Shown: in pieces, positions 4,068 to 43,727 of the stretch
Layout of the letters: every line of letters begins with the position of its first letter
How positions within the stretch are numbered: the stretch's first letter is position 1
Sequence record: PP274704.1
Source: Escherichia phage ECp13
Strand: one strand, 5' to 3'
Length of the DNA: 64,000 bases
Program-made: the position numbers and the translations under genes
Notes under the pieces: model-generated
What the model saw: only the letters and a program-made list of their open reading frames with translations
The model's database searches: none
Told to the model about the DNA's origin: nothing

Positions 4068-6322
4068 TTAATGTTATCAAAAGTAGTGGTGTTTCTCAGA
4101 GCTTTGACCCACAAAAAATTATTAAAGTTTTATCTTGGGCAGCTGAAGGAACATCTGTAGATCCTTATGAATTATATGAAAATATTAAATCATATCTCCG
4201 TGATGGAATGACAACTGATGACATTCAGACTATTGTCATTAAGGCTGCTGCGAATTCTATTTCAGTTGAAGAGCCTGATTACCAATATGTAGCTGCACGC
4301 TGTTTAATGTTCGCTCTTCGTAAGCATGTTTACGGGCAGTATGAACCACGTTCATTTATTGACCATATTTCTTACTGCGTAAATGAAGGTAAATACGACC
4401 CTGAACTGTTATCAAAATATTCTGCAGAAGAAATTACATTTTTAGAATCAAAAATTAAGCACGAGCGGGATATGGAATTTACTTATTCCGGGGCGATGCA
4501 ATTAAAAGAAAAATATCTAGTTAAAGATAAAACCACTGGTCAAATTTATGAAACTCCGCAGTTTGCATTTATGACTATTGGAATGGCATTGCATCAAGAT
4601 GAACCCGTTGATAGACTAAAACACGTTATTCGTTTTTATGAAGCAGTATCTACTCGACAGATTTCATTGCCAACTCCTATTATGGCTGGTTGCCGTACTC
4701 CAACTCGGCAGTTTAGTTCATGCGTTGTTATTGAGGCGGGTGATTCATTGAAGTCTATCAATAAGGCTTCCGCTTCAATTGTTGAATATATCTCCAAACG
4801 TGCTGGAATTGGTATTAACGTTGGTATGATTCGTGCCGAAGGTTCTAAGATTGGCACAGGTGAAGTACGCCATACTGGTGTTATTCCTTTTTGGAAACAT
4901 TTTCAGACTGCTGTTAAATCATGCTCACAGGGTGGAATTCGTGGCGGCGCTGCTACTGCTTATTATCCTATTTGGCATTTGGAAGTTGAAAATCTTCTCG
5001 TTTTGAAAAATAACAAAGGCGTAGAAGAAAACCGTATCCGTCATATGGATTATGGCGTTCAGCTGAATGATTTGATGATGGAACGTTTTGGAAAGAACGA
5101 CTACATTACTTTGTTCAGTCCGCATGAAATGGGTGGCGAACTTTATTATTCTTATTTTAAAGACCAAGACCGTTTCCGTGAATTATATGAAGCTGCAGAA
5201 AAAGACCCTAATATTCGTAAAAAGCGTATTAAAGCCCGTGAACTGTTTGAATTGCTCATGACTGAACGCTCAGGAACAGCAAGGATTTATGTGCAGTTCA
5301 TTGATAATACGAATAACTATACTCCATTTATTCGTGAAAAGGCACCTATTCGTCAGAGTAACTTGTGTTGTGAAATTGCTATTCCAACAAATGATGTGAA
5401 TAGCCCTGATGCTGAAATTGGATTGTGCACGTTATCTGCGTTTGTGTTGGATAACTTCGATTGGCAAGACCAAGATAAAATTAATGAATTGGCAGAAGTC
5501 CAAGTTCGTGCTCTTGATAATCTTTTGGATTACCAAGGATATCCAGTTCCTGAAGCAGAAAAAGCTAAAAAACGTCGAAACCTTGGCGTAGGCGTTACTA
5601 ACTATGCAGCTTGGCTGGCAAGTAATTTTGCTTCTTATGAAGACGCTAACGATTTAACACATGAACTATTTGAGAGATTGCAGTATGGACTTATTAAAGC
5701 ATCCATTAAGCTCGCCAAAGAAAAAGGACCTTGCGAATATTATTCAGACACTCGTTGGTCTCGAGGCGAATTACCTATCGACTGGTACAATAAAAAGATT
5801 GACCAAATCGCAGCTCCAAAATACGTTTGTGACTGGTCGTCGCTGCGGGAAGACCTTAAGCTCTTTGGCATCCGTAATAGCACATTATCAGCACTTATGC
5901 CGTGTGAGTCATCTTCCCAAGTTTCTAACAGTACAAACGGTATCGAGCCTCCACGTGGACCAGTCTCTGTTAAAGAATCAAAAGAGGGTTCCTTTAATCA
6001 AGTCGTGCCCAATATTGAACATAACATAGACCTATATGATTATACGTGGAAATTAGCTAAGAAAGGTAATAAACCTTATCTTACGCAGGTAGCTATTATG
6101 CTGAAATGGGTATGTCAATCAGCTTCAGCGAATACATATTATGACCCGCAGATTTTTCCAAAAGGAAAGGTTCCAATGTCAATAATGATTGATGACCTTT
6201 TGTATTTTTGGTATTTTGGCGGAAAAAATTTCTATTATCATAATACCCGTGACGGTTCTGGTACTGATGATTATGAAATAGAAACTCCAAAAGCTGAAGA
6301 TTGTTCATCCTGTAAATTATGA
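4058..6322 (+). CDS. nrdA: aerobic ribonucleotide reductase large subunit
   Basis: 754 aa; class I RNR sequence with active-site NLCCEIA and the C-terminal CSSCKL. Confidence 0.95.
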   Translation: MQLINVIKSSGVSQSFDPQKIIKVLSWAAEGTSVDPYELYENIKSYLRDGMTTDDIQTIVIKAAANSISVEEPDYQYVAARCLMFALRKHVYGQYEPRSFIDHISYCVNEGKYDPELLSKYSAEEITFLESKIKHERDMEFTYSGAMQLKEKYLVKDKTTGQIYETPQFAFMTIGMALHQDEPVDRLKHVIRFYEAVSTRQISLPTPIMAGCRTPTRQFSSCVVIEAGDSLKSINKASASIVEYISKRAGIGINVGMIRAEGSKIGTGEVRHTGVIPFWKHFQTAVKSCSQGGIRGGAATAYYPIWHLEVENLLVLKNNKGVEENRIRHMDYGVQLNDLMMERFGKNDYITLFSPHEMGGELYYSYFKDQDRFRELYEAAEKDPNIRKKRIKARELFELLMTERSGTARIYVQFIDNTNNYTPFIREKAPIRQSNLCCEIAIPTNDVNSPDAEIGLCTLSAFVLDNFDWQDQDKINELAEVQVRALDNLLDYQGYPVPEAEKAKKRRNLGVGVTNYAAWLASNFASYEDANDLTHELFERLQYGLIKASIKLAKEKGPCEYYSDTRWSRGELPIDWYNKKIDQIAAPKYVCDWSSLREDLKLFGIRNSTLSALMPCESSSQVSNSTNGIEPPRGPVSVKESKEGSFNQVVPNIEHNIDLYDYTWKLAKKGNKPYLTQVAIMLKWVCQSASANTYYDPQIFPKGKVPMSIMIDDLLYFWYFGGKNFYYHNTRDGSGTDDYEIETPKAEDCSSCKL

Positions 6323-18560: not shown

Positions 18561-18829
18561 TGTTTGTCGTTCACACTATTTATGAAAATGAAGGTAATAC
18601 TACACGTGATTATGGTCACGTAAATCAATTTTTTAGATGCAATCCAGAATTCCGAGCTCAAAAAGACGAACGAATTTTTAAAAAATGTGTAGAGCAAGGT
18701 TTCATTTACGTCAAGCACTGGATGCAAGGAAATAAAGTTAGAACTACATATCACAGGTCTTTGCCTGAGCTTAATGATGAATTGATTTATAATAGAAATG
18801 TAAATCAAACTCTGAAGGATGAACAATGA
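18560..18829 (+). CDS. hypothetical protein
   Basis: 89-aa ORF directly upstream of the ligase gene. Confidence 0.4.
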   Translation: MFVVHTIYENEGNTTRDYGHVNQFFRCNPEFRAQKDERIFKKCVEQGFIYVKHWMQGNKVRTTYHRSLPELNDELIYNRNVNQTLKDEQ

Positions 18830-20286
18830 TTCTTAAAATTCTGAATGAAATAGCATCTATTGGATCAACTAAGCAGAAGCAAGCAATTCTTGAAAAGAAT
18901 AAAGATAACGAATTGCTTAAACGAGTATATCGTCTGACTTATTCTCGTGGGTTACAGTATTATATCAAGAAATGGCCTAAGCCTGGTATTGCTACCCAGA
19001 GTTTTGGAATGCTGACTATTACCGATATGCTTGACTTCATTGAATTCACGTTAGCTACTCGGAAATTGACTGGAAATGCGGCAATTGAGGAATTAACTGG
19101 ATATATCACTGATGGTAAAAAGGATGATGTTGAAGTTTTGCGTCGAGTTATGATGCGAGACCTTGAATGCGGTGCTTCAGTATCTATTGCAAACAAAGTT
19201 TGGCCAGGTTTAATTCCTGAACAACCTCAAATGCTGGCAAGTTCTTATGATGAAAAAGGCATTAGTAAGAATATCAAATTTCCAGCTTTTGCACAGTTAA
19301 AAGCAGATGGAGCTCGGTGTTTTGCTGAAGTCCGAGGCGATGAATTAGATGATGTTCGTCTTTTATCACGAGCTGGTAATGAATATCTAGGATTAGATCT
19401 TCTTAAAGAAGAGTTAATCAAAATGACTGCCGAAGCCCGCCAGATTCATCCAGAAGGTGTGTTAATCGATGGCGAATTGGTATACCATGAGCAAGTTGAA
19501 AAGGAGCCAGAAGGCCTAGATTTTCTTTTTGATACTCCTGAAAATAGTAAAGTTAAAGAGTTTGCCGAAGTAGCTGAATCACGTACTGCTTCTAATGGAA
19601 TCGCCAATAAATCTTTAAAGGGAACTATTTCAGAAAAAGAAGCCAAATGCATGAAGTTTCAGGTCTGGGATTATGTCCCGTTGGTAGAAATATACGGTCT
19701 TCCAGCGTTTCGTTTAAAATATGATGTACGTTTTTCTAAACTAGAACAAATGACATCAGGATATGATAAAGTAATTTTAATTGAAAACCAGGTAGTAAAT
19801 AACCTAGATGAAGCTAAGGTAATTTATAAAAAGTATATTGACCAAGGTCTTGAAGGTATTATTCTCAAAAATACCGATGGATTATGGGAAAATGCTCGTT
19901 CAAAAAATCTTTATAAATTTAAAGAAGTAATTGATGTTGATTTAAAAATTGTAGGAATTTATCCTCACCGTAAAGACCCTACTAAAGCGGGTGGATTTAT
20001 TCTTGAATCAGAGTGTGGAAAAATTAAAGTAAATGCTGGTTCAGGCTTAAAAGATAAAGCCGGTGTAAAATCGCATGAACTTGACCGTACTCGCATCATG
20101 GAAAACCAAAATTATTATATTGGAAAAATTCTAGAGTGCGAATGTAACGGTTGGTTAAAATCTGATGGCCGCACTGATTACGTTAAATTATTTCTTCCGA
20201 TTGCGATTCGTTTACGTGAAGATAAAACTAAAGCTAATACATTCGAGGATGTATTTGGTGATTTTCATGAGGTAACTGGTCTATGA
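18826..20286 (+). CDS. 30: ATP-dependent DNA ligase
   Basis: 486 aa; adenylation motif LKADGARC; sequence recognised as T4-type ligase. Confidence 0.95.
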   Translation: MILKILNEIASIGSTKQKQAILEKNKDNELLKRVYRLTYSRGLQYYIKKWPKPGIATQSFGMLTITDMLDFIEFTLATRKLTGNAAIEELTGYITDGKKDDVEVLRRVMMRDLECGASVSIANKVWPGLIPEQPQMLASSYDEKGISKNIKFPAFAQLKADGARCFAEVRGDELDDVRLLSRAGNEYLGLDLLKEELIKMTAEARQIHPEGVLIDGELVYHEQVEKEPEGLDFLFDTPENSKVKEFAEVAESRTASNGIANKSLKGTISEKEAKCMKFQVWDYVPLVEIYGLPAFRLKYDVRFSKLEQMTSGYDKVILIENQVVNNLDEAKVIYKKYIDQGLEGIILKNTDGLWENARSKNLYKFKEVIDVDLKIVGIYPHRKDPTKAGGFILESECGKIKVNAGSGLKDKAGVKSHELDRTRIMENQNYYIGKILECECNGWLKSDGRTDYVKLFLPIAIRLREDKTKANTFEDVFGDFHEVTGL

Positions 20287-20471
20287 AAGCTTACTTAGAA
20301 ACAATTGTCGTTGCTCAAAAAGAAGGCGGAGATGTTTCTACTTCTGTATCACAAATTATGATTGAATTTATAGATGCATATGCTTATAATAAATTCACAG
20401 AAACATTTGATGCCTATGAAAAAGGTCCAAAGTTTGAAATATATCGTACTCTCTTACCAATAGATTATTAA
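20283..20471 (+). CDS. hypothetical small protein
   Basis: 62-aa ORF coupled to the ligase stop; terminator hairpin follows. Confidence 0.4.
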   Translation: MKAYLETIVVAQKEGGDVSTSVSQIMIEFIDAYAYNKFTETFDAYEKGPKFEIYRTLLPIDY

Positions 20472-20492
20472 AGGCCTTCGGGCCTTTAATTT
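20471..20492 (+). terminator. rho-independent terminator between the gene 30 operon and alt
   Basis: AAGGCC-TTCG-GGCCTT hairpin plus a T-rich tail. Confidence 0.6.
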
Positions 20493-20500
20493 TATAAATA
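20493..20500 (+). promoter_or_regulatory. late promoter TATAAATA for alt
   Basis: Exact TATAAATA 24 nt upstream of the alt ATG, just after a terminator hairpin. Confidence 0.6.
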
Positions 20501-20523
20501 GAATAAACACTAGAGAGGATATG

Positions 20524-22617
20524 ATGGAACTCATTACAGAATTATTTGACGAAGATACTACTCTTCCGATTACAAACTTAAATCCAAAGAAGAAAATACC
20601 ACAAATTTTTTCAGTTCATGTTGATGACGCAATTGAACAGCCAGGCTTTCGTTTATGTACCTATACATCTGGAGGTGATACTAATCGCGATTTAAAGATG
20701 GGCGATAAAATGATGCATATTGTTCCTTTTACATTAACTGCTAAAGGCTCAATTGCTAAATTAAAAGGTCTCGGTCCAAGCCCAATTAATTACATCAATT
20801 CAGTTTTTACTGTTGCAATGCAGACGATGCGTCAGTATAAAATTGATGCCTGTATGCTCCGTATTCTTAAGTCTAAAACTGCTGGTCAAGCTCGACAAAT
20901 TCAACTTATTGCTGATAGACTTATTCGCAGCCGTTCAGGAGGCAGATACGTCCTTCTTAAGGAACTCTGGGATTACGATAAAAAGTACGCATATATTCTT
21001 ATACATCGCAAAAATGTATCACTAGAAGACATTCCAGGAGTTCCGGAAATTAGTACCGAGCTCTTTACTAAAGTTGAATCGAAGGTCGGCGATGTTTATA
21101 TCAATAAAGATACTGGAGCTCAAGTAACTAAAAATGAGGCAATTGCAGCATCTATTGCGCAAGAAAACGATAAACGCTCTGACCAAGCTGTAATAGTTAA
21201 AGTTAAAATTTCCCGTAGAGCAATTGCACAAAGTCAGTCATTGGAATCTTCTAGATTTGAAAGTGAATTATTCCAAAAGTATGAATCTACTGCAGCTAAT
21301 TTCAATAAACCTGCTACCGCTCCTTTAATTCCCGAAGCGGAAGAAATGAAACTTGGAATTAATTCAATAGCTTCTAAAACTAAGGCAGCAAAAATCATTG
21401 CCGAAGGAACTGCAGATGAACTTCATTATGACTATAAATTCTTTTCAAAAAGTGAGGTTAATGAAGTTTCTGAAAAGATTAAAGATGTAATTCTTAATGC
21501 GATTAAAAATGAACCAACTACTTCAATAAAATGTTTAGAGAAATACGCAGCAGCCGTTAATCAATTCTTTGAAGAATATAAAGATAATTGGCTTGATAAA
21601 CATAATAAAACTCGTAAAGGGCAGCCAGATGAAGTCTGGGAAGAAATAACTAAAAATTCCTGGAACGCAGCAAAAACTAAATTCCTCAAACGAATGATTT
21701 ATAGTTTTTCTGGAATTGGTGCAGGTCCAATGATTGATATTACTATTGCCCGTGATGGTTCTAAATATACTCCATCACAAAAGCGCGGCATTAGAGAGTA
21801 TTGTGGTTCAGGATATACTGACATCAATAATCTTCTTTTAGGACGCTACAATCCAGAACGATATGATGTAATGAGTGAAAAAGAAATTGAATCTGCTATA
21901 AATAACTTAGATTCAGCTTTTGAAAATGGTGACCGTATACCAGAAGGCATTACAGTTTATCGTGCTCAAAGTATGACTGCTCCTATATACGAAGCACTAG
22001 TTAAAAATAAAGTGTTCTATTTCAGAAATTTTGTATCTACTTCTTTAACTCCTATCATTTTTGGACGTTTTGGAATTACGCATGCTGGTATTGGTCTTTT
22101 AGAACCAGAAGCTCGTAATGAATTGACAGTTGATAAAAATGAAGAAGGAATAACTATTAATCCAAACGAAATAAGAGCGTATAAAGAAAATCCTGAATAC
22201 GTTAAAGTTCAAATAGGATGGGCAATTGATGGAGCTCATAAAGTTAATGTTGTATATCCAGGAAGTCTCGGAATAGCAACAGAAGCTGAAGTTATTCTAC
22301 CACGCGGATTGATGGTCAAAGTTAATAAAATAACTGATGCTTCTAATAATGACGGAACAACATCTAATAATACAAAACTTATTCAAGCTGAAGTTATGAC
22401 TACGGAAGAACTCACCGAATCAGTAATTTATGACGGTGACCGTCTAATGGAAACTGGTGAAGTAATTGCAATGACAGGTGATATTGAAATAGAAGACAGA
22501 GTTGACTTTGCATCATTTGTTTCATCAAATGTTAAACAAAAAGTAGAATCATCTCTTGGAATTATTGCGTCTTGCATAGATATTACAAACATGCCTTACA
22601 AGTTCGTTCAAGGATAA
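20524..22617 (+). CDS. alt: ADP-ribosyltransferase Alt (capsid-packaged), copy 1
   Basis: 697 aa; N-terminal MELITELFD region; R-S-E triad (VYRAQ, FVSTSL, EAEVILPRG); late promoter TATAAATA just upstream. Confidence 0.85.
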   Translation: MELITELFDEDTTLPITNLNPKKKIPQIFSVHVDDAIEQPGFRLCTYTSGGDTNRDLKMGDKMMHIVPFTLTAKGSIAKLKGLGPSPINYINSVFTVAMQTMRQYKIDACMLRILKSKTAGQARQIQLIADRLIRSRSGGRYVLLKELWDYDKKYAYILIHRKNVSLEDIPGVPEISTELFTKVESKVGDVYINKDTGAQVTKNEAIAASIAQENDKRSDQAVIVKVKISRRAIAQSQSLESSRFESELFQKYESTAANFNKPATAPLIPEAEEMKLGINSIASKTKAAKIIAEGTADELHYDYKFFSKSEVNEVSEKIKDVILNAIKNEPTTSIKCLEKYAAAVNQFFEEYKDNWLDKHNKTRKGQPDEVWEEITKNSWNAAKTKFLKRMIYSFSGIGAGPMIDITIARDGSKYTPSQKRGIREYCGSGYTDINNLLLGRYNPERYDVMSEKEIESAINNLDSAFENGDRIPEGITVYRAQSMTAPIYEALVKNKVFYFRNFVSTSLTPIIFGRFGITHAGIGLLEPEARNELTVDKNEEGITINPNEIRAYKENPEYVKVQIGWAIDGAHKVNVVYPGSLGIATEAEVILPRGLMVKVNKITDASNNDGTTSNNTKLIQAEVMTTEELTESVIYDGDRLMETGEVIAMTGDIEIEDRVDFASFVSSNVKQKVESSLGIIASCIDITNMPYKFVQG

Positions 22618-22620
22618 ATC

Positions 22621-24678
22621 ATGGAACTTATTACAGAATTATTTGACGGCGCTTCGGCGCCGGTTGTTAACTTAAATCCTAAGCACAAAATACCTCAAAT
22701 TTTTGCTATTCAAGCCGGCGAAGAAAGCGTGCTTCCTGGATTTAGATTTTGTACATACACCTCTGGCGGTGATACAAATAAAAACGTTAAGCCAGGCGAT
22801 AAAATGATGCATATCGTAATGATAGGTGTTAATGAGAAACTATCATTAGTTAAACTTAAAAACTTGGGTGGAAATCCAATTGGTGTCATTAATGCCGTTT
22901 TTGATACTGCTCTTCAAACAATGAAACAGTATAAAATTGACGCATGCCTATTCCGCGTACTAAAAAGTAAAACAAATGGCGCAGCTCGTCAAATGCAAGT
23001 TATTGCTGACCGTTTAGTACGTACTAAAGGAGCAGGTCGATATGTTCTTTTAAAGGAAATCTGGGATTACGATAAAAAGTATGCATATATTATGGTTTAC
23101 CGTAAAAATGCCAATTTAGAAGACATTCCAGGTGTACCTCCTATTTCAACTGAGTTATTCACAAAAGTTGAATCAAAGGTTGGTGATGTTTATGTAGATG
23201 TTAAAACAGGTAATGCTGTTCCTAAAGCTGTTGCTGTTGCTGCTTCTATTGCTTTAGAAAATGATAAGCGCACGGATCAAGCCGTTATTCAGAAAACTAA
23301 AATTAGTCGTCGATTAGCAGCACAAGCTCAATATTCTACTGTAGATGCTTCGCTTCAGGGTGATAGCTTCGCTGCCAAGAAATATCAAGAGTTTGAATCT
23401 AAAGTTCCGGTATATAAAGCAGAAGGACCAATGAACTCTGGTGTTATTCAGATTGGTTCAAACTTCAGCAAAGGAGCTATCGGTGGTATGAGAAGTGCTT
23501 CTCGTTTTAAATCTAGCGATTATGAACTAGAAAGCTTCCGAAATCATATTGCATTGGCCCATGCACGTTTACGTGATCCGTCTATCAGACTGCAGAGCGA
23601 TATAACACATCAAGGTTCTCAAGAATATTTAAAGAATAAAGAATTTTTTGATTATAAAACCGATAAAATTTTGAGCGATCTCGCTGACATTAATATTTCT
23701 AATAGCTTTGATGTTATTAAGAAAATTATCAATGATTTAGTTAAAGGTTCTAAAGCTACGCCAGACGAAAAGGTAGCTATTATTCAATTTGTCATGAATG
23801 GCATTTATAAATTGATTAATGAATCTGCTGCTCAGGCATATGAATACGCAAGCACCGAAGTAACTCCAAAAGGATTAACTCAGGCTGAGTCTGATGTAAT
23901 TGAAGATTATTGCGCAGATTCATATGTTGAAATGAACTCGTTCCTTTTAGGTAAACCGGATTCTACCCGTGAAGAATACATGGAACGAGCTATTAAACAC
24001 ATCGAGACGCTGGATTCTGCATTCGCCAAAGGATCAGTTCTTCCTCCGGGAACTACGCTTTATCGTGGTCAAGAAGTTACTTTTAAAACTTTACGTCATA
24101 ATATTGAAAATAAAATGTTCTATTTCAAGAACTTCGTATCAACATCGCTTAAACCAAATATCTTCGGTGAGCATGGTAAAAACTATATGGCTCTAGATGA
24201 TTCCGGTGCAGTATTTTCTGGTGAAGGAGAAGGTTCTGTTGATGCTGAAGATTTAATGCATATGGGTAGTCACTCTTCTTATGCGAATGAAGATGCTGAA
24301 ACTAGCGTAGGTATGGTAATAAAAGGAGCTGAGCGAATTAAAGTTATCGTTCCAGGTCATTTATCAGGATTTCCATCAGAAGCTGAAGTTATTTTACCGC
24401 GTGGAATTTTGCTGAAGATTAATAAAGTGAGTACATACATGATGAAAGAAACTGCTTATAACAAGTATCTAATCGAAGGCACAATCGTTCCTCCTTCTGA
24501 ACAATTAGAAGAATCGGTATATGATGGCGATCATCTAATGGAAACTGGTGAAGTTCGTCCAATGGCTGGGTTTAATCAATTCCTTGTAGAAGAATCAAAA
24601 GAAGAGGAAAACGAAGTTTCTCAAATCTTGGCTTCTTTGGTTAACATCAACGGAATGTCTAAAAAGTTCAAGATGTAG
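22621..24678 (+). CDS. ADP-ribosyltransferase, Alt paralog, copy 2
   Basis: 685 aa; N-terminal ~230 aa closely similar to copy 1; R-S-E triad retained (LYRGQ, FVSTSL, EAEVILPRG); an insert sits between the STS and E-x-E motifs. Confidence 0.8.
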   Translation: MELITELFDGASAPVVNLNPKHKIPQIFAIQAGEESVLPGFRFCTYTSGGDTNKNVKPGDKMMHIVMIGVNEKLSLVKLKNLGGNPIGVINAVFDTALQTMKQYKIDACLFRVLKSKTNGAARQMQVIADRLVRTKGAGRYVLLKEIWDYDKKYAYIMVYRKNANLEDIPGVPPISTELFTKVESKVGDVYVDVKTGNAVPKAVAVAASIALENDKRTDQAVIQKTKISRRLAAQAQYSTVDASLQGDSFAAKKYQEFESKVPVYKAEGPMNSGVIQIGSNFSKGAIGGMRSASRFKSSDYELESFRNHIALAHARLRDPSIRLQSDITHQGSQEYLKNKEFFDYKTDKILSDLADINISNSFDVIKKIINDLVKGSKATPDEKVAIIQFVMNGIYKLINESAAQAYEYASTEVTPKGLTQAESDVIEDYCADSYVEMNSFLLGKPDSTREEYMERAIKHIETLDSAFAKGSVLPPGTTLYRGQEVTFKTLRHNIENKMFYFKNFVSTSLKPNIFGEHGKNYMALDDSGAVFSGEGEGSVDAEDLMHMGSHSSYANEDAETSVGMVIKGAERIKVIVPGHLSGFPSEAEVILPRGILLKINKVSTYMMKETAYNKYLIEGTIVPPSEQLEESVYDGDHLMETGEVRPMAGFNQFLVEESKEEENEVSQILASLVNINGMSKKFKM

Positions 24679-24731
24679 TTTACAAGTCCCTCGTGTTGTG
24701 TTATAGTAGTCTTACTGACATAACATGAGGA
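24678..24731 (+). promoter_or_regulatory. early promoter plus 5' leader, copy B of the 54-nt repeat
   Basis: 53 of 54 nt identical to 9161-9214. Confidence 0.5.
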
Positions 24732-24738
24732 ACACAAA

Positions 24739-25029
24739 ATGAAATCTTCTTTACGCTTTTTAGGTCAAGAACTTGTAGTTGAAGGCGTTATTCCTGCTGA
24801 TAACGCTTTTAATGAAGCAGTTTATGATGAATTTATCAAAATTTTTGGAACAGATAAAAAGTTCGGAATTTTTCCTTCTGAAAATTTTTCAAAGCCAGAA
24901 CAGACTGAAAGCATTTTCCAGGGTGTAGTAACAGGTAAATTTGAGTCAGAAGCTCCGGTAAAAATTGAAGTTTATATTGAAGACAGTTTAGTTGCTTCAG
25001 TTGCTGCTTTCATTTCATTCCGTAAATAA
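24739..25029 (+). CDS. hypothetical protein
   Basis: 96-aa ORF behind a copy of the 54-nt promoter-leader repeat; terminator follows. Confidence 0.45.
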   Translation: MKSSLRFLGQELVVEGVIPADNAFNEAVYDEFIKIFGTDKKFGIFPSENFSKPEQTESIFQGVVTGKFESEAPVKIEVYIEDSLVASVAAFISFRK

Positions 25030-25034
25030 AAATA

Positions 25035-25054
25035 TGGGGACCTTTCGGTCCCCA
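25035..25054. terminator. bidirectional terminator between the convergent alt-region and gene 54 transcripts
   Basis: TGGGGACC-TTTC-GGTCCCCA hairpin between two convergent stop codons. Confidence 0.65.
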
Positions 25055-25057
25055 TTG

Positions 25058-38872: not shown

Positions 38873-40156
38873 TTATTCATCAATGATAATTTTTGGTAGC
38901 TTAACACCTAATAAAACAGACAAATCTGAACGACCCGCCATTTTATCCATGTCTCCACCATCAATTACTCTTGCTTCTTTTTCATCTTTTGCTACAGTGT
39001 AAGGATTTGCAGATAAAGCATATCTAACTAATAAACCGATAGATGGCTGCAAACTTTCTGGATCAACTACAACTTTAAATGCACCTACATGTTCAGGGTC
39101 ATCTAAGTCAAGACCTTCTGTATACGGAGCATAGAAAATTGACCCAACAATTTCTTTTTCACCGATATTTTCTACTACGCCAACGATTACATAATCTAAT
39201 GGGCTGTTGGTATCGCAATAAAGCGGTAAACCATTAGCTAAGAACCCGTAGGCATTTTGTGAAAGATATTTGTCATCTTCTGGTTTATGTTTTAACCAAC
39301 CTGATGCAGCAAGAATTGCAGCGGCACGAGCTGAAGCAACACAGAATGTTGCAGTATAAGTTGATTCTTTTTGGATATGCGAAACCATTTCACATACCAT
39401 TCGGTATAATGAACGACCAGCTTCAGGTGCAGATGCATAACTCAAATCAATGAATCCAGTATCAGTAATTCCTGTAACTTTATAGCGTTTTGACACTGTA
39501 ATCAAAGACTGCAGAATATCTTTATTGATTTCATCTGCCATTTCGGTTGCAAGCAAATCTTCCAAGAAATTAGGAGCATCGAATCCATTTGCTTCTAAAT
39601 CTTGTGCTAATTCAACTGTGATGCCAGTTTTAAGTTTACGAGATTTAACCGCGGTTTGCCATTTATTAATCTGGAATCTAGCATCCGCAATTTCACTATC
39701 AGAGCTTTCAAATTTGCTTGTTACTGCAGCATCAGAAAATAGACGAACCTTTAAAAGAACAATTGCAATCTGAAGAGCTAATTCTAAATCGCTTTCTTCA
39801 ATATCAGCAAATGGTGTATCTTCTAATACTTTATAAACGATATTATTATATTTGAATAAATCGCCTTTATTGAGAGTTAATTTAGACTCTTCTGTTAATT
39901 CTGTGATTTGTTCTCGGTCTACATACCCAGCTTCGCCGGCGTAAGTAGCACCAGTTTTAAATGTAAATTCGTTATCTGGGTTAAGGTATTTGATACCATA
40001 AAAAGCAGCAACAGGTTGATTAGTTCTTTGCGTTGCTACAATGTCAGAATATATTAATTTAGTGGTAGCGCGAGTCAAAGCAACGAGATTTGGGCGACCG
40101 ATTGAGTTGCTATTCGTTGTGGTTGATTCGCGCAGAAGTTCGTTGATTTTAGCCAT
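38873..40156 (-). CDS. 24: capsid vertex protein
   Basis: 427 aa; paralog of gp23; late promoter upstream. Confidence 0.9.
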   Translation of the reverse strand: MAKINELLRESTTTNSNSIGRPNLVALTRATTKLIYSDIVATQRTNQPVAAFYGIKYLNPDNEFTFKTGATYAGEAGYVDREQITELTEESKLTLNKGDLFKYNNIVYKVLEDTPFADIEESDLELALQIAIVLLKVRLFSDAAVTSKFESSDSEIADARFQINKWQTAVKSRKLKTGITVELAQDLEANGFDAPNFLEDLLATEMADEINKDILQSLITVSKRYKVTGITDTGFIDLSYASAPEAGRSLYRMVCEMVSHIQKESTYTATFCVASARAAAILAASGWLKHKPEDDKYLSQNAYGFLANGLPLYCDTNSPLDYVIVGVVENIGEKEIVGSIFYAPYTEGLDLDDPEHVGAFKVVVDPESLQPSIGLLVRYALSANPYTVAKDEKEARVIDGGDMDKMAGRSDLSVLLGVKLPKIIIDE

Positions 40157-40183
40157 TGCGCTTTCCTTTTGGTTTATATGATT

Positions 40184-40191
40184 TATTTATA
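40184..40191 (-). promoter_or_regulatory. late promoter TATAAATA for gene 24
   Basis: Plus-strand TATTTATA 28 nt upstream of the gene 24 ATG. Confidence 0.6.
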
Positions 40192-40206
40192 CCATAAAAA
40201 CAACTA

Positions 40207-40226
40207 AAGGGACCCGAAGGTCCCTT
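40207..40226 (-). terminator. terminator after gene 23
   Basis: AAGGGACC-CGAA-GGTCCCTT hairpin between the gene 23 stop and the gene 24 late promoter. Confidence 0.65.
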
Positions 40227-40239
40227 AAATCGTCAAAGA

Positions 40240-41805
40240 TTAGATACCTTTAACATATACACGGCGGAAGTAAGCGTTTTTACCAAGGCTATTCAGAATA
40301 GAAGGCATACCGCTCTGGATGCGAGAAGCCGGAGCCTGAGCAGCGGATTCTGCAAATGGGTTGATACCGATACCGTAACGAGTTTTGAATCCCATTACTG
40401 GTTGGAAGTTCTTCGGATCGGAACCACGCAGCGGAGTCAGAGCTACATATGGAGCGTAGTAAATACCAGCATCCATTTCGTTCGGACCTTTATAACCTAC
40501 AGTGAAATAATCCTGTTTAGCATACTGGTCGATATATACACGGTATTTACCACCCAGAACACCAGCAAATACTGACTTAGTAGTATCAGTGTTAAAGCCG
40601 GTAGCCAGACCCTGTGCAGCATAAGAAATGCCAGTATCAACTGAAGCCAGAACGTTAACTACGTTACGGGAAGCGATAATGAAGTTACCTTCACCACGAC
40701 CGGTCTGACGAGCAATTTCAACTGCTTCTTTGTCAATCTGGAACAACAGAGCTTTAAAGGATTCACCCGCCCAGCGAGCACCACGAATATCAATCGGATC
40801 CTGGAAGTCAAACACACCAGCTTTAGAACCCGGAGTCAGGGTCATACCAGATTTACCAACCTGAGCTGAGTAGTTAATCCAATCAACAACTTCACGGTTG
40901 ATTTCCAGCATGATTTCGGTAGCCAGAATACCAGACAGTTCAGCATCAGCATCCATACCGTGAACAGCGCGGAGGTCTTGTGCTAATTCGATAGAGTAAG
41001 CAGCTTTCAGCTGGCGAGATTTAGCTTCGATAACTTGTTTATCGATACGGAAGCCCATTTCATTCCATGGGTTATCGGTAGAACCGTTGAAACCTTCCTG
41101 AAGTTCAGCGATAGAAGTAGCCATACCTTCAGCGATTTCTACCAGTACACCAGCTTCCATTTGTTTCTTAATTTCAGCATCTAATTTAGCTGCATCATCC
41201 GCAGTAGAACTAATTGTTACTTGAGCAGAAGCTTGCAGATACACAGTACCAGTGTCCTGGAAGAAGTGAGTATAGATATCACCTACTGTAGTTTGTGTAC
41301 TAGCAGCCAGAGCTGGGAATTTCTTAGCAGCACCCTGACCAGAGAACATTGCATCTGGACCATACATTGGGTGGAATGCTTCTTTAGCACCGGCAGCGAT
41401 TGGGTCTTTACCATATACTGCACGCAGTGCGAATACCTGGCCAGTCGGGCTGTTCATCGGCTGAACACCGCAAATGTCGAAAGCAATCAGGTTAGGAATA
41501 GCACGACGTACCATACCCATAACAGCTGGGCCAATCTGAGTTACTGCGCCAGAAGTCTGACCTGCAGCGATGTTGGTAGCATTGTAACCGTGGTCACCAC
41601 CGATTTCAGCTTCTGTTAAGAAAGAACCGAATGCCTGAGCAATTTTTTCGTCTTTATATTCCGGAGCTGTCTGGAAATCTTTTTCCTGGTTTTCAAAGAT
41701 TTTAGCGATAATCGCTTGTTTGCTATTAGCAATTTCCGGTAAACCTTCACCTTCCAGTAATGGCTTCCATTTGTTCAAAAGTTCAGCTTTAGTTTTGATA
41801 GTCAT
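40240..41805 (-). CDS. 23: major capsid protein
   Basis: 521 aa; sequence recognised as gp23 (MTIKTKAELLNKWKPLLEGEG...). Confidence 0.97.
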   Translation of the reverse strand: MTIKTKAELLNKWKPLLEGEGLPEIANSKQAIIAKIFENQEKDFQTAPEYKDEKIAQAFGSFLTEAEIGGDHGYNATNIAAGQTSGAVTQIGPAVMGMVRRAIPNLIAFDICGVQPMNSPTGQVFALRAVYGKDPIAAGAKEAFHPMYGPDAMFSGQGAAKKFPALAASTQTTVGDIYTHFFQDTGTVYLQASAQVTISSTADDAAKLDAEIKKQMEAGVLVEIAEGMATSIAELQEGFNGSTDNPWNEMGFRIDKQVIEAKSRQLKAAYSIELAQDLRAVHGMDADAELSGILATEIMLEINREVVDWINYSAQVGKSGMTLTPGSKAGVFDFQDPIDIRGARWAGESFKALLFQIDKEAVEIARQTGRGEGNFIIASRNVVNVLASVDTGISYAAQGLATGFNTDTTKSVFAGVLGGKYRVYIDQYAKQDYFTVGYKGPNEMDAGIYYAPYVALTPLRGSDPKNFQPVMGFKTRYGIGINPFAESAAQAPASRIQSGMPSILNSLGKNAYFRRVYVKGI

Positions 41806-41823
41806 TTGTGTTAACCTTTAAAA

Positions 41824-42633
41824 TTAGAAACGAGATGCGACTTTCGCATATACACTTACAATATCTTCTGCACCAGGTGCAGCTTTATCTTCTACAGCTT
41901 CAGTGACGAAATTCAGTCCGGCTGCTTCAGTATCAGGAGTATTTATACTCTCAGTAATAGTGCTTTCATCTTTATTAGATTTCTTCACCATTTCTACGAT
42001 GGCACTCAATTTACTTGAGAATGCATCTGAATAATCCATACCTTCGACCAGAGCAGAGACTTTTTCTTTTTGAGACTCAGTCAGATCTTTAGTACTTTCG
42101 CTCAATGCCACTTCACGCTGCACATAATTAATATATGCGTCGCGCATATTGAGTTCTTCGAACAGACGAGCTGATTCTTCTTTATGTTCTTGCAGCTCTT
42201 CTTCCATTTCAGCTACAACATCAACTGATTCTTCTGGAACAACAACGTTGTGTTCAACAAAGAGCTCTTTTAATCCACCAAGCATGGATTCAAACAGTTC
42301 GGCTTTGATGCCTTTATCAACTGCTAATTTATTTTCAGCGAGCCATTCTTTTGCAAGATGGTCGATGAATTTAGAAGCTTGCTCAGCGATTTTCTTCTCA
42401 GCTTTTTCTTCGGCTTCTTCTTTATTTTTTTCTACTTCTTCTTCTGCTTTTTCAGCAATTTTAGCGATATGAGATTCAGCTAATTTAACGGCGTGCTGCT
42501 TGACGGTAGCTTCGAATACAGTGCCGAAAGTTTCTTTTGCTTCCGGAGAAATATTAACTGATTCGAAAATACTATCAAGAGCAACGGAAGCATCAATTTT
42601 TTGCGCTTCAGCAATCAGTTGTTCTTTAAGCAT
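41824..42633 (-). CDS. 22: prohead core scaffold protein
   Basis: 269 aa; acidic coiled-coil-type sequence; synteny. Confidence 0.85.
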   Translation of the reverse strand: MLKEQLIAEAQKIDASVALDSIFESVNISPEAKETFGTVFEATVKQHAVKLAESHIAKIAEKAEEEVEKNKEEAEEKAEKKIAEQASKFIDHLAKEWLAENKLAVDKGIKAELFESMLGGLKELFVEHNVVVPEESVDVVAEMEEELQEHKEESARLFEELNMRDAYINYVQREVALSESTKDLTESQKEKVSALVEGMDYSDAFSSKLSAIVEMVKKSNKDESTITESINTPDTEAAGLNFVTEAVEDKAAPGAEDIVSVYAKVASRF

Positions 42634-42660
42634 TTTGTAGTCCTGTTGTTTAGATAATAA

Positions 42661-42668
42661 TATTTATA
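42661..42668 (-). promoter_or_regulatory. late promoter TATAAATA for gene 22
   Basis: Plus-strand TATTTATA at the 3' end of gene 21. Confidence 0.5.
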
Positions 42669-43302
42669 ACGCTTTTTTCATGGCCTCTGCGAGAGCCATA
42701 TAGGCGTCATCGGCACTTGTATCGGCTTCCGCCGTCTGTGATTCGGTAATTTCCTTAGGAGTTACCCATGCATCTGGAGCACTTGGACCCCATACTGCAT
42801 CAACACCTACAGTTAATTTGAATCCTTCGTTTACGATACGATAACCTTTATTTGTGTCAGTCAATGAACCTAATCCACGAGAAGAAACTCCTGGAATCCA
42901 TCCGGCACGAATATTAGCTGCTAATTTATCTCCAGGACCATGGTCACCTTCAATAACACGAGCTCGTCCGTATACGTCATTTCCTTTCCACCACATATCT
43001 TCTATAATGATAGCGGCTTGCATCGGGTCAACATTAGCGCGTGGAGGATGATTTAATTCTCCGAGAGCTTGTTTAGTTAAAACTTGCTCATTGATATAGT
43101 CTTTTACCGCTTTTTCTAATATGCGTTTTGGATAAAGACGTTTATTTCTATTGACGACTTCCGCTTGCATGAATATTCCTTCGATGTATAAACCAGGTTT
43201 TAAACCGAGGTCTTTTCCATCATGAGATTCAAGCATTGGCACGCCATCAATAATTTCGCCAGGTTGACCCCAAGTTTCAATTAGTAATTGGGGTTCATTC
43301 AT
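42664..43302 (-). CDS. 21: prohead core protease
   Basis: 212 aa; synteny and size match T4 gp21. Confidence 0.9.
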   Translation of the reverse strand: MNEPQLLIETWGQPGEIIDGVPMLESHDGKDLGLKPGLYIEGIFMQAEVVNRNKRLYPKRILEKAVKDYINEQVLTKQALGELNHPPRANVDPMQAAIIIEDMWWKGNDVYGRARVIEGDHGPGDKLAANIRAGWIPGVSSRGLGSLTDTNKGYRIVNEGFKLTVGVDAVWGPSAPDAWVTPKEITESQTAEADTSADDAYMALAEAMKKAL

Positions 43303-43727
43303 TAGCTTAATCCTAATGCTTTACGGCGTTTAAGAGCTTTTTTACGCTTACGCTGAGCACGAGATTGACCTGCTGGATTGGCAATCTTCGTTTTGGTAGC
43401 TTTGCGAGCAATTTGTCTACGTTTTGCTTTAGACAGCCCGGTGGTTTGAAATGCATTACGTTCACGCGTTTTGCGGTCTTTGGTACGTGTAATTTCACCA
43501 CGAGCAGAAACATGTTTAACGATGAATTCATTTAGCGGCATATCTTCATTAATAGAAGCTAATGCAATCGCTAAATCAGTTTCATCATCAAGCATATTCT
43601 CGACAATTGTATTTATATCGTCTTTATTTAAAGCAGAAGACAATTCGTCAAAGCGACCCTGTGCTTCAGGAATAAGTGCTTCGACATTCTCGAGAACCAA
43701 TTCATGAGTTTCAGGGATCAGAAGCAT
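43302..43727 (-). CDS. 68: prohead core protein
   Basis: 141 aa; synteny. Confidence 0.7.

Follow-up and report, generated by a model that had tools for sequence, protein, structure and literature searches.

The window analysed here, a 64,000-nucleotide stretch of Escherichia phage ECp13 (PP274704.1), carries two adjacent genes for paralogous Alt-type ADP-ribosyltransferases, and the second of them (copy 2) is the intact form of a gene that survives in T4 as a remnant, alt.-1/alt.-2. We propose that the copy 2 product is probably a second late-expressed, capsid-packaged and injected arginine ADP-ribosyltransferase, whose range of substrates would differ from that of the first (copy 1). The tandem pair is itself already known, having been annotated in hundreds of genomes and remarked on in print. 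What is new here is the identification of T4 alt.-1/alt.-2 as a broken copy 2, the strong selection on copy 2 and the old age of the duplication.

Layout and predicted expression of the alt locus

Copy 1, the T2/T6-type allele of alt, lies at 20524..22617 on the plus strand and encodes 697 aa (698 aa with the ATG at 20521). Copy 2, of which T4 has only the remnant, follows on the same strand at 22621..24678 as an intact, full-length reading frame of 685 aa. These are as claimed in an earlier note on this DNA, which described two adjacent intact frames of 697 and 685 aa, both beginning MELITELFD. Both genes sit between DNA ligase/alt.1 and alt.-3/gp54, as does alt in T4 and as do their counterparts in T2, T6, RB27 and Shfl2; the Tequatrovirus alt region is here in its T2/T6-type state, in the order lig, alt.1, alt, second alt, alt.-3 and convergent gp54. 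The alt.1 homologue (20283..20471, plus strand; 62 aa, Pfam Phage_blade) occupies the position of T4 alt.1 and is followed by a hairpin, aaaggccttcgggccttt, at 20470-20487. The alt.-3 homologue (24739..25029, plus strand; 96 aa) carries a DUF5498 domain.

A match to the T4 late-promoter consensus, TATAAATA, is found at 20493..20500 on the plus strand, 23 nt upstream of the alt start codon; it is a motif match only, one of 18 in the window where 9.6 are expected. The gap between the copy 1 stop codon and the copy 2 ATG is only 3 nt, and a Shine-Dalgarno sequence for copy 2, AAGGA (22610..22614, plus strand), is housed inside the last codons of copy 1, from which we infer co-transcription and translational coupling of the two genes. 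A motif search of the window found no separate promoter motif upstream of copy 2. The late promoter before copy 1 would drive both alt genes, copy 2 having its own ribosome-binding site, and the arrangement suggests that the pair is co-transcribed late.

Directly past the copy 2 stop codon and upstream of alt.-3 is a sigma-70/T4-early-like promoter motif (TTTACA, 17 nt, TG-TATAGT; 24679..24707, plus strand), a motif-only assignment that matches at 10 of 12 positions and whose sequence is kept in T4. Between the convergent alt.-3 and gp54 lies an intrinsic-terminator-like, bidirectional hairpin (25034..25055), G+C-rich and with a T-run. It had been suggested that the late promoter at 20493 and a terminator at 25035 bracket the pair. 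Both motifs are indeed present, but alt.-3 intervenes before the terminator.

Divergence of the two Alt paralogs

Copy 1 and copy 2 are paralogous Alt-type ADP-ribosyltransferases, 41% identical overall (BLASTP E = 2e-157). Identity is unevenly spread, at 68% over the N-terminal ~240 aa, 18% in the linker, 37% in the ADP-ribosyltransferase (ART) domain and 42% at the C-terminus, which bears out the earlier description of closely similar first ~230 residues and strongly different middle regions. Copy 2 is equally close to T4 Alt over its N-terminal 240 aa (68%). Pfam PF03496 (ADPrib_exo_Tox) matches copy 1 at E = 1.6e-37 (129.2 bits) and copy 2 at E = 2.9e-20 (72.9 bits), both above the curated gathering cutoff of 23.4 bits. 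The R-S-E triad is kept in each, as had been noted, with the Arg, S-T-S and E-x-E elements in order: YRAQ (R480), STS 505-507 and EAE 587-589 in copy 1, and YRGQ (R482), STS 507-509 and EAE 587-589 in copy 2. In an 18-sequence alignment across Alt types, R482, Q484, S507, S509, E587 and E589 of copy 2 are invariant. Within the R-S-E class, E-x-E marks arginine-specific enzymes. The E577A substitution in T4 Alt abolishes ADP-ribosylation (PMC11404850). By our reading E577 is the second Glu of this motif (E576 when numbered from MELITE), and it appears conserved in both window copies.

An insert of about 60 aa between STS and E-x-E, which the earlier note saw in copy 2, is not borne out. Between these motifs there are 80 aa in copy 2, 82 in copy 1 and 71 in T4 Alt, so that a long spacer is a feature of the Alt family rather than of copy 2. 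Canonical ART toxins have a spacer of ~40 aa. The bacterial toxins Vis, Certhrax, CDTa, VIP2 and C3bot share only 14-26% identity with Alt proteins, which differ from them in the 71-82 aa spacer and in their fused, phage-specific N- and C-terminal modules.

The copies also part ways where specificity might be set. Their STS-to-ExE spacers are 21% identical and the residues just before E-x-E differ (GFPSEAE vs GIATEAE), and both segments may serve in substrate recognition, by analogy with other R-S-E ARTs. A search of the copy 2 sequence against PDB chains gave no match at E ≤ 0.01 and we know of no solved Alt-family structure, so the fold is taken from a predicted model. There the ART fold is intact, with an uncertain STS-to-ExE spacer (pLDDT ~60-75) and a poor C-terminus (below 50); the first 10 and the C-terminal ~55 residues are poorly modelled. 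It is reasonable, on these sequence features, to regard the pair as two probably competent Alt-type enzymes with diverged specificity.

The T4 remnant, selection and age

T4 alt.-1/alt.-2 (NP_049810, NP_049809) is the same gene as copy 2, but dead in T4. Over its first ~348 nt it matches copy 2 at ~96% identity, except that one A is absent, and it then joins the last 20 nt of copy 2 across a 9-bp repeat, CTAAAAAGT; in a collinear alignment of the copy 2 region with the remnant and its flanks, 340 of 360 positions are identical. The missing A belongs to an A5 run at 22780..22784 (plus strand), and its loss in T4 causes the frameshift that splits alt.-1 from alt.-2. The 5' and 3' copies of the direct repeat, at 22960..22968 and 24659..24667 (both plus strand), mark the left and right ends of a 1699-bp T4-type deletion. 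T4 alt.-1/alt.-2 is a wreck of the copy 2 gene, left by these 1-bp and 1699-bp deletions. That T4 has a single alt, as the earlier note had it, is true of intact genes, but T4 also carries this pseudogene. The T4 record words the remnant as 'an old duplication of the first part of gene alt', and the T6 record describes the full-length gene as an 'apparent insertion in alt.-2'. Since the intact gene is conserved and subject to selection, a deletion in T4 is the simpler assumption, and both records can be reread in this way, with no need for partial duplication or insertion. In practical terms this corrected alt.-1/alt.-2 reading has modest value.

Copy 2 is under strong purifying selection. In pairwise comparisons of the window phage, T2, T6, Shfl2 and RB27 its dN/dS is 0.026-0.049, with 42-89 synonymous vs 6-13 non-synonymous differences per pair, and copy 1 behaves likewise (0.025-0.068). 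Shigella phage sb4 (L006) was left out of this analysis; both of its alt genes, like its ligase and gp48, are broken into fragments, which suggests sequencing errors. Between the paralogs synonymous sites are saturated, even in the similar N-terminal domain (dS 1.2-1.8), which indicates that the alt duplication is old. The same values rule out recent gene conversion as the source of the N-terminal similarity, which instead reflects constraint.

These data also bear on whether copy 2 might be mainly a structural prohead-core or internal protein, retained for its N-terminal module, with an ART domain that either has no activity or does not matter. T4 Alt has been called both an enzyme and a protein of the core (PMC11404850), conservation between the paralogs is highest in the N-terminal domain (68% vs 37% for the ART), and the Pfam ART score of copy 2 is below that of copy 1 (73 vs 129 bits). 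Yet the catalytic residues of copy 2 are all invariant and its predicted ART fold is intact, and a dN/dS of 0.03-0.05, with 6-13 amino-acid differences per 685 residues, leaves no room for a decaying domain. Phages of the T4 type, moreover, drop nearly the whole gene and not the ART half alone. We consider a mainly structural role very unlikely.

The novelty that the earlier note implied for a second full-length alt does not hold, as the gene is already annotated at the same position in T2, T6, RB27, Shfl2, ime09 and ~400 Tequatrovirus records. These orthologues of copy 2 are 97-99.6% identical to it and are labelled Alt-like RNA polymerase ADP-ribosyltransferase, alt.-2 or alt_2; the RefSeq label for such loci is 'Alt-like RNA polymerase ADP-ribosyltransferase (x2)', and the Shfl2 annotation notes mention a second alt in RB14, RB32 and RB51. 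Copy 2 differs in nothing substantive from the T2/T6-type second Alt and is one more member. At ≥90% protein identity it recurs in ~400 phage records, including T2, T6, RB27 and Shfl2, and its 90% protein cluster has 772 members. A more diverged lineage (L008) keeps the two alt genes side by side, its copy 2 being 74% identical. Koch & Rüger (1994) reportedly gave T2, T4 and T6 alt sequences, probably without the second gene, since the T6 alt fragment X69894 ends 48 nt into copy 2. Nolan 2006 makes a genomic remark only on the second Alt (PMC1524935), and a 2026 paper describes two Alt paralogs of ~43% identity and speculates on functional divergence (PMC13600099). The searchable literature yielded no experimental work on the second Alt protein.

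Proposed function and a possible cassette system at the alt locus

Each product comprises four parts, namely a ~240-aa Tevenvirinae_ADPRT module, a variable helical linker, an R-S-E (Alt/VIP2/C3-type) ART and a conserved C-terminal segment. T4 Alt (gpAlt, NAD+--arginine ADP-ribosyltransferase, NP_049811) shares this architecture with the window copies, together with the locus and the MELITELFD start. The N-terminal module corresponds to PF26846, a precomputed annotation of copy-2-type proteins whose model is absent from the Pfam set used on the window; it is precomputed for a protein 99% identical to copy 2 (P0001) and for the L007 and L008 genes.

The prohead protease gp21 cuts at L/I-x-E sites. 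The module opens with MELITE, an I-x-E site of the kind that gp21 would cut (ITE at residues 4-6 in both copies), and the conserved C-terminal segment, E-S-x-Y-D-G-D-x-L-M-E-T-G-E, includes L-x-E motifs: near residues 629-643 copy 1 has LTE and LME, and copy 2 has LEE and LME (629-641). Short motif matches are the support for these candidate sites. Each T4 head contains 40 copies of Alt, which gp21 cleaves at both termini (PMC9026906). By analogy, both window products would enter the prohead core, be trimmed by gp21 at both ends, be ejected with the DNA and, during the first seconds after infection begins, mono-ADP-ribosylate host proteins on arginine. Packaging and processing would depend on the N- and C-terminal modules that the two copies share, whereas the linker and ART surface, which have diverged strongly, would direct copy 2 to substrates other than those of copy 1. 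Packaging, gp21 cleavage, enzymatic activity and distinct targets are all predictions. Our search of the literature found no virion proteomics of phages with copy 2.

Might copy 2 instead be active but unpackaged, acting late in the producing cell, much as ModA and ModB are not injected? Its poorly modelled first 10 and last ~55 residues would fit such a role. However, ModA and ModB are short early proteins without the PF26846 module, and copy 2 keeps that module, MELITE and the C-terminal motif in common with packaged T4 Alt and lies behind a late-promoter motif, with no promoter motif of its own. An unpackaged enzyme seems highly improbable.

Comparison with other Tevenvirinae speaks to specificity. 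Single Alts such as those of JS10 (P0012) and Salmonella phage KM16 (P0014) are nearer to copy 2 than copy 1 is in the linker, the ART (47-56% vs 37%) and the C-terminus (51-71% vs 42%). Its N-terminal module, by contrast, is 68% identical to copy 1 and T4 Alt vs 45% to JS10, and region by region copy 2 resembles a 'JS10-like' enzyme body to which a packaging module of Tequatrovirus type has been attached. Overall it is 42% identical to T4 Alt. T4 Alt ADP-ribosylates RNA polymerase alpha (Arg265) and other host proteins, which is known for T4 Alt only. Copy 2 could be a redundant dosage duplicate with the targets of Alt, such as alpha Arg265, given that the copies have their architecture, arginine-type E-x-E motif and operon position in common and that copy 2 has been lost without obvious cost in 91 records. 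We regard this as unlikely, because only 37% of the ART, 18% of the linker and 21% of the STS-to-ExE spacer are identical, the saturated synonymous sites imply that two distinct sequences have long been maintained, the pre-ExE residues with their putative recognition role differ, and the copy 2 ART is nearer to single Alts of other genera than to copy 1.

The second, injected enzyme that we favour may not be needed in culture. The T4-type deletion junction is contiguous in 91 of 497 records; with T4 and ~90 other records lacking copy 2, and T4 Alt itself non-essential (PMC9026906), any function of copy 2 appears dispensable under laboratory conditions.

It is tempting, if tentative, to go further and view copy 2 as a distinct injected effector, with targets unlike those of Alt and lost from T4, and the alt locus as an ART cassette system; we hold this to be possible rather than probable. 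The conserved modules at the N- and C-termini would anchor recombination, so that phages could swap, fuse or drop ART 'warheads'. If so, ~80% of Tequatroviruses, including T2 and T6, would inject two different ADP-ribosyltransferases. What is known of phage-injected ADP-ribosyltransferases derives almost entirely from T4, which has only a dead remnant of copy 2, whereas most of its close relatives, T2 and T6 among them, retain the gene intact and under strong purifying selection. Were copy 2 injected with targets of its own, the T4 picture of three ARTs (Alt, ModA and ModB) would be incomplete for the genus, and copy 2 could account for some of the ways in which T4 differs from T2/T6 in host takeover or in sensitivity to host defences.

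Consistent with the cassette view, alt itself occurs with either a T4-type or a T2/T6-type central cassette. The overall identity of 70% between copy 1 and T4 Alt is that of a mosaic: the ends are close (98-100% over the N-terminal 240 aa and ~93% over the C-terminal ~55 aa; dS 0.12-0.19), whereas residues 241-~640 are 34-85% identical (34-68% up to 585; dS 0.8-1.6). Cassette type and presence of copy 2 assort independently, which also fits. The T4-type central cassette is found in 175 records and the copy 2 deletion in only 91; HP3 joins a T4-type alt to an intact copy 2, so the T4-type alt is not always paired with copy 2 loss, and slur14 has a T2/T6-type alt with the deletion. Finally, and again in keeping with exchange of cassettes, one contig from one sequencing run (L007) has just one alt gene, a hybrid whose N-terminus is that of copy 1 and whose body is that of copy 2. 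Its sequence changes from one type to the other at one clean breakpoint, where ~11 nt are shared, and with identical paralog runs of at most 22 nt in that region a repeat-collapse assembly artefact seems unlikely.

The tandem alt pair and its distribution

Two adjacent intact ORFs, alt itself (copy 1, 697 aa, 20524-22617, with a further in-frame ATG at 20521) and a second Alt-type gene (copy 2, 685 aa, 22621-24678), both begin MELITELFD, as the earlier note described. The pairwise alignment proposed there gives 41% identity overall (BLASTP E = 2e-157) and bears out the reported pattern of closely similar N-termini and strongly different middles: identity is 68% across the N-terminal ~240 aa, drops to 18% in the central part and rises again to 37% for the ADP-ribosyltransferase (ART) domain and 42% for the C-terminal end. 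Pfam ADPrib_exo_Tox matches both products far over its curated cutoff, and the R-S-E triad recognized in both could be located at R480, STS 505-507 and EAE 587-589 in copy 1 and R482, STS 507-509 and EAE 587-589 in copy 2. An insert of some 60 aa private to copy 2 between STS and ExE, also claimed, is not there: STS and ExE stand 80 aa apart in copy 2, against 82 aa in copy 1 and 71 aa in T4 Alt, and the long spacer is common to the whole Alt family. The copies diverge most in the linker, in this spacer (21% identity) and in the residues immediately N-terminal to ExE (GFPSEAE versus GIATEAE).

The window is a genome segment of a Tequatrovirus (T4-like). The pair follows DNA ligase gp30 (18826-20286) and alt.1 (20283-20471, Pfam Phage_blade) and precedes alt.-3 (24739-25029, DUF5498), 3' of which gp54 and gp48 lie on the opposite strand. 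Only 3 nt separate the copy 1 stop codon from the copy 2 ATG, with an AAGGA ribosome-binding site 5' of the latter. The late promoter and terminator said to bracket the pair are both present as motifs, a match to the consensus TATAAATA at 20493-20500 and a bidirectional terminator-like hairpin at 25034-25055, but alt.-3 lies between copy 2 and the hairpin. A sigma-70/T4-early-like promoter (TTTACA, 17 nt, TG-TATAGT; 24679-24707), rated good and kept in T4, sits directly 3' of the copy 2 stop and upstream of alt.-3. With such a promoter, alt.-3 may be transcribed early, apart from the late message of the alt genes.

The 4.8-kb locus has DNA matches in 537 phage records, with at least 80% of it covered in 353 and a top match of 98.3% identity, and RefSeq labels it 'Alt-like RNA polymerase ADP-ribosyltransferase (x2)'. 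In a tblastn search, 396 records contain copy 2 at 95% identity or more and another 5 at 90-95%; its protein cluster at 90% identity holds 772 member sequences. The same gene pair (2094 and 2058 nt) was present in all four loci fetched, those of T6, T2, Shfl2 and RB27, and the Shfl2 annotation notes also mention alt.-2 in RB14, RB32 and RB51. A more diverged lineage (L008) keeps a tandem pair of 697 and 694 aa, the 694-aa protein being 74% identical to copy 2; no alt.1 is called there between ligase and the first alt (1663-1904). The pair is thus widely annotated and is the usual arrangement in the genus, T2 and T6 included, and the novelty implied for a second intact alt falls away, as hundreds of records already carry it. 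In 2006, a comparative study of T4-like genomes had already counted alt.-1/alt.-2 of T4 among the paralogs duplicated from alt, and it reported that phage 44RR has a duplicate of alt at full length (PMC1524935). Given the RefSeq and record annotation and these published remarks, both the observation and its interpretation are already in databases and in print; the earlier reading of a second capsid-injected enzyme with a different target is reasonable, not new.

Selection on both copies and deletion in T4

By the Nei-Gojobori method, applied among the window phage, T2, T6, Shfl2 and RB27, dN/dS is 0.026-0.049 for copy 2 (42-89 synonymous against 6-13 non-synonymous differences per pair) and 0.025-0.068 for copy 1, and purifying selection is equally strong on the two. 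Between the paralogs, synonymous sites are saturated throughout, so the duplication is old. Even the N-terminal domain, similar as it is, has a dS of 1.2-1.8, and its similarity has therefore been kept by constraint and not by recent gene conversion. The record of Shigella phage sb4 (PQ666542.1) has ligase, gp48 and the two alt genes each broken into several ORFs, probably by artefactual indels from sequencing or assembly.

T4 was described as having a single alt. Only one is indeed intact; after it come the small ORFs alt.-1 and alt.-2, which the T4 record itself describes as an old duplication of alt's first part. Alignment with the window identifies them (L001, the T4 locus, 5066-5451) as a remnant of copy 2, since ~348 nt from the ATG are ~96% identical to its 5' end. 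T4 lacks one A of the A5 run at window 22780-22784, and the resulting frameshift divides alt.-1 from alt.-2. Past these ~348 nt, T4 goes straight on with the final 20 nt of copy 2, followed by alt.-3. The joint is a 9-bp direct repeat, CTAAAAAGT, both copies of which stand in the window (22960-22968 and 24659-24667). The T4 remnant is therefore a 1699-bp deletion between 9-bp repeats combined with a 1-bp frameshift, a history whose polarity the annotations of T6 and T4 read differently. The T6 record (MH550421.1, L002 3001-5058) notes an 'apparent insertion in alt.-2'; because full copy 2 is conserved and under selection, the comparison argues that this note has the polarity reversed and that T4 represents the derived, deleted state. 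Of 497 records matching a 121-nt probe across the T4 junction, 91 match it contiguously and the remainder in halves only; among sequenced Tequatroviruses, about one fifth are thus T4-like here and about four fifths have the intact gene.

A possibly modular locus

Copy 1 and T4 alt are not related by simple orthology. Their first 240 aa and last ~55 aa are ~93-100% identical (dS 0.12-0.19), whereas the centre, residues 241 to ~640, is 34-85% identical (34-68% up to 585; dS 0.8-1.6). The gene alt itself thus exists in two forms that are nearly identical at the ends but deeply diverged in the central cassette, and T4 Alt biochemistry may therefore not carry over directly, even to copy 1. The cassettes compared were window 21244-22383 (copy 1 residues ~241-620) and L001 5641-6783; in counts of cassette type and copy 2 state, which come from BLAST summaries only, the T4 type occurs at 90% identity or above in 175 records and the window/T2/T6 type in 318, with 34 more at 80-90%. 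Which cassette alt carries and whether copy 2 is present assort independently: in HP3 a T4-type alt stands beside an intact copy 2, and slur14 combines a T2/T6-type alt with the T4-type deletion.

Three database proteins (P0004, P0005 and P0007) are hybrids of a copy-1-type N-terminus and a copy-2 body, with a different crossover point in each. On the contig of P0005 (L007, from Logan SRR24155011, 4001-6055), the hybrid is the sole alt gene, between alt.1 and alt.-3. At the DNA level it is copy-1-type to about nt 550 and copy-2-type thereafter, switching cleanly and only once, at a stretch of ~11 nt that the two types share. Known from one contig of one sequencing run, it has the pattern that unequal recombination of the tandem pair would produce.

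Aligned with P0011-P0015, which include the Alt of JS10 (P0012) and of Salmonella phage KM16 (P0014), the linker, ART domain and C-terminus of copy 2 are nearer to the single Alt of these other Tevenvirinae than to copy 1 (ART domain 56% identical to the JS10 type and 47-52% to the KM16 type, against 37%), whereas its N-terminal module is nearest to copy 1 and T4 Alt. Of the two, copy 2 may represent the more widespread Alt lineage. Together, the diverged cassettes, their independent assortment, the hybrids and this affinity of the copy 2 body suggest a modular locus, in which packaging constraints hold the conserved end modules in place while the enzyme bodies can be replaced, fused or lost.

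Predicted role of the second enzyme

An AlphaFold2 model of copy 2, built on an 18-sequence alignment (mean pLDDT 77, pTM 0.70), divides into four regions: the N-terminus forms an alpha/beta domain (~1-240), which is followed by a long linker of helices (~250-470), the ART domain (~480-625) and a poorly modelled C-terminal tail. Searched against PDB chains, copy 2 detected no solved structure of an Alt-family protein by sequence. In T4 Alt, E577A abolishes ADP-ribosylation (PMC11404850); by our reading of the numbering, E577 is the second Glu of ExE (E576 counted from MELITE). That residue is conserved in both copies. A purely structural role for copy 2 seems less likely than an enzymatic one.

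T4 Alt is a prohead-core protein, present in 40 copies per head, that is trimmed at both termini by the gp21 protease and ejected with the DNA (PMC9026906). Copy 2 has the N-terminal module (Pfam PF26846, Tevenvirinae_ADPRT), an I-x-E motif within its MELITE start, an invariant C-terminal segment E-S-x-Y-D-G-D-x-x-x-E-x-G-E with L-x-E motifs, and a place downstream of the late-promoter motif. The features it has in common with T4 Alt are plausibly those responsible for packaging, processing and ejection. By this analogy, copy 2 is probably a second packaged, injected, arginine-directed mono-ADP-ribosyltransferase; that it acts late inside the cell, unpackaged, is the less likely course. The regions in which the paralogs differ most, namely linker, STS-to-ExE spacer and pre-ExE residues, would be those that usually select substrate in R-S-E ARTs. 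It is natural to infer from their divergence that the second injected enzyme may have a target range unlike that of copy 1, and simple redundancy appears less likely.

Elsewhere in the window, minus-strand ORFs of 427, 521, 269, 212 and 141 aa (38873-43727) fit T4 gp24, gp23, gp22, gp21 and gp68, as assigned by size and order only. If they are assigned correctly, the window also encodes the prohead protease by which the two Alt proteins would be processed. A GC peak of 0.436 at 40-42 kb falls on the 521-aa ORF.
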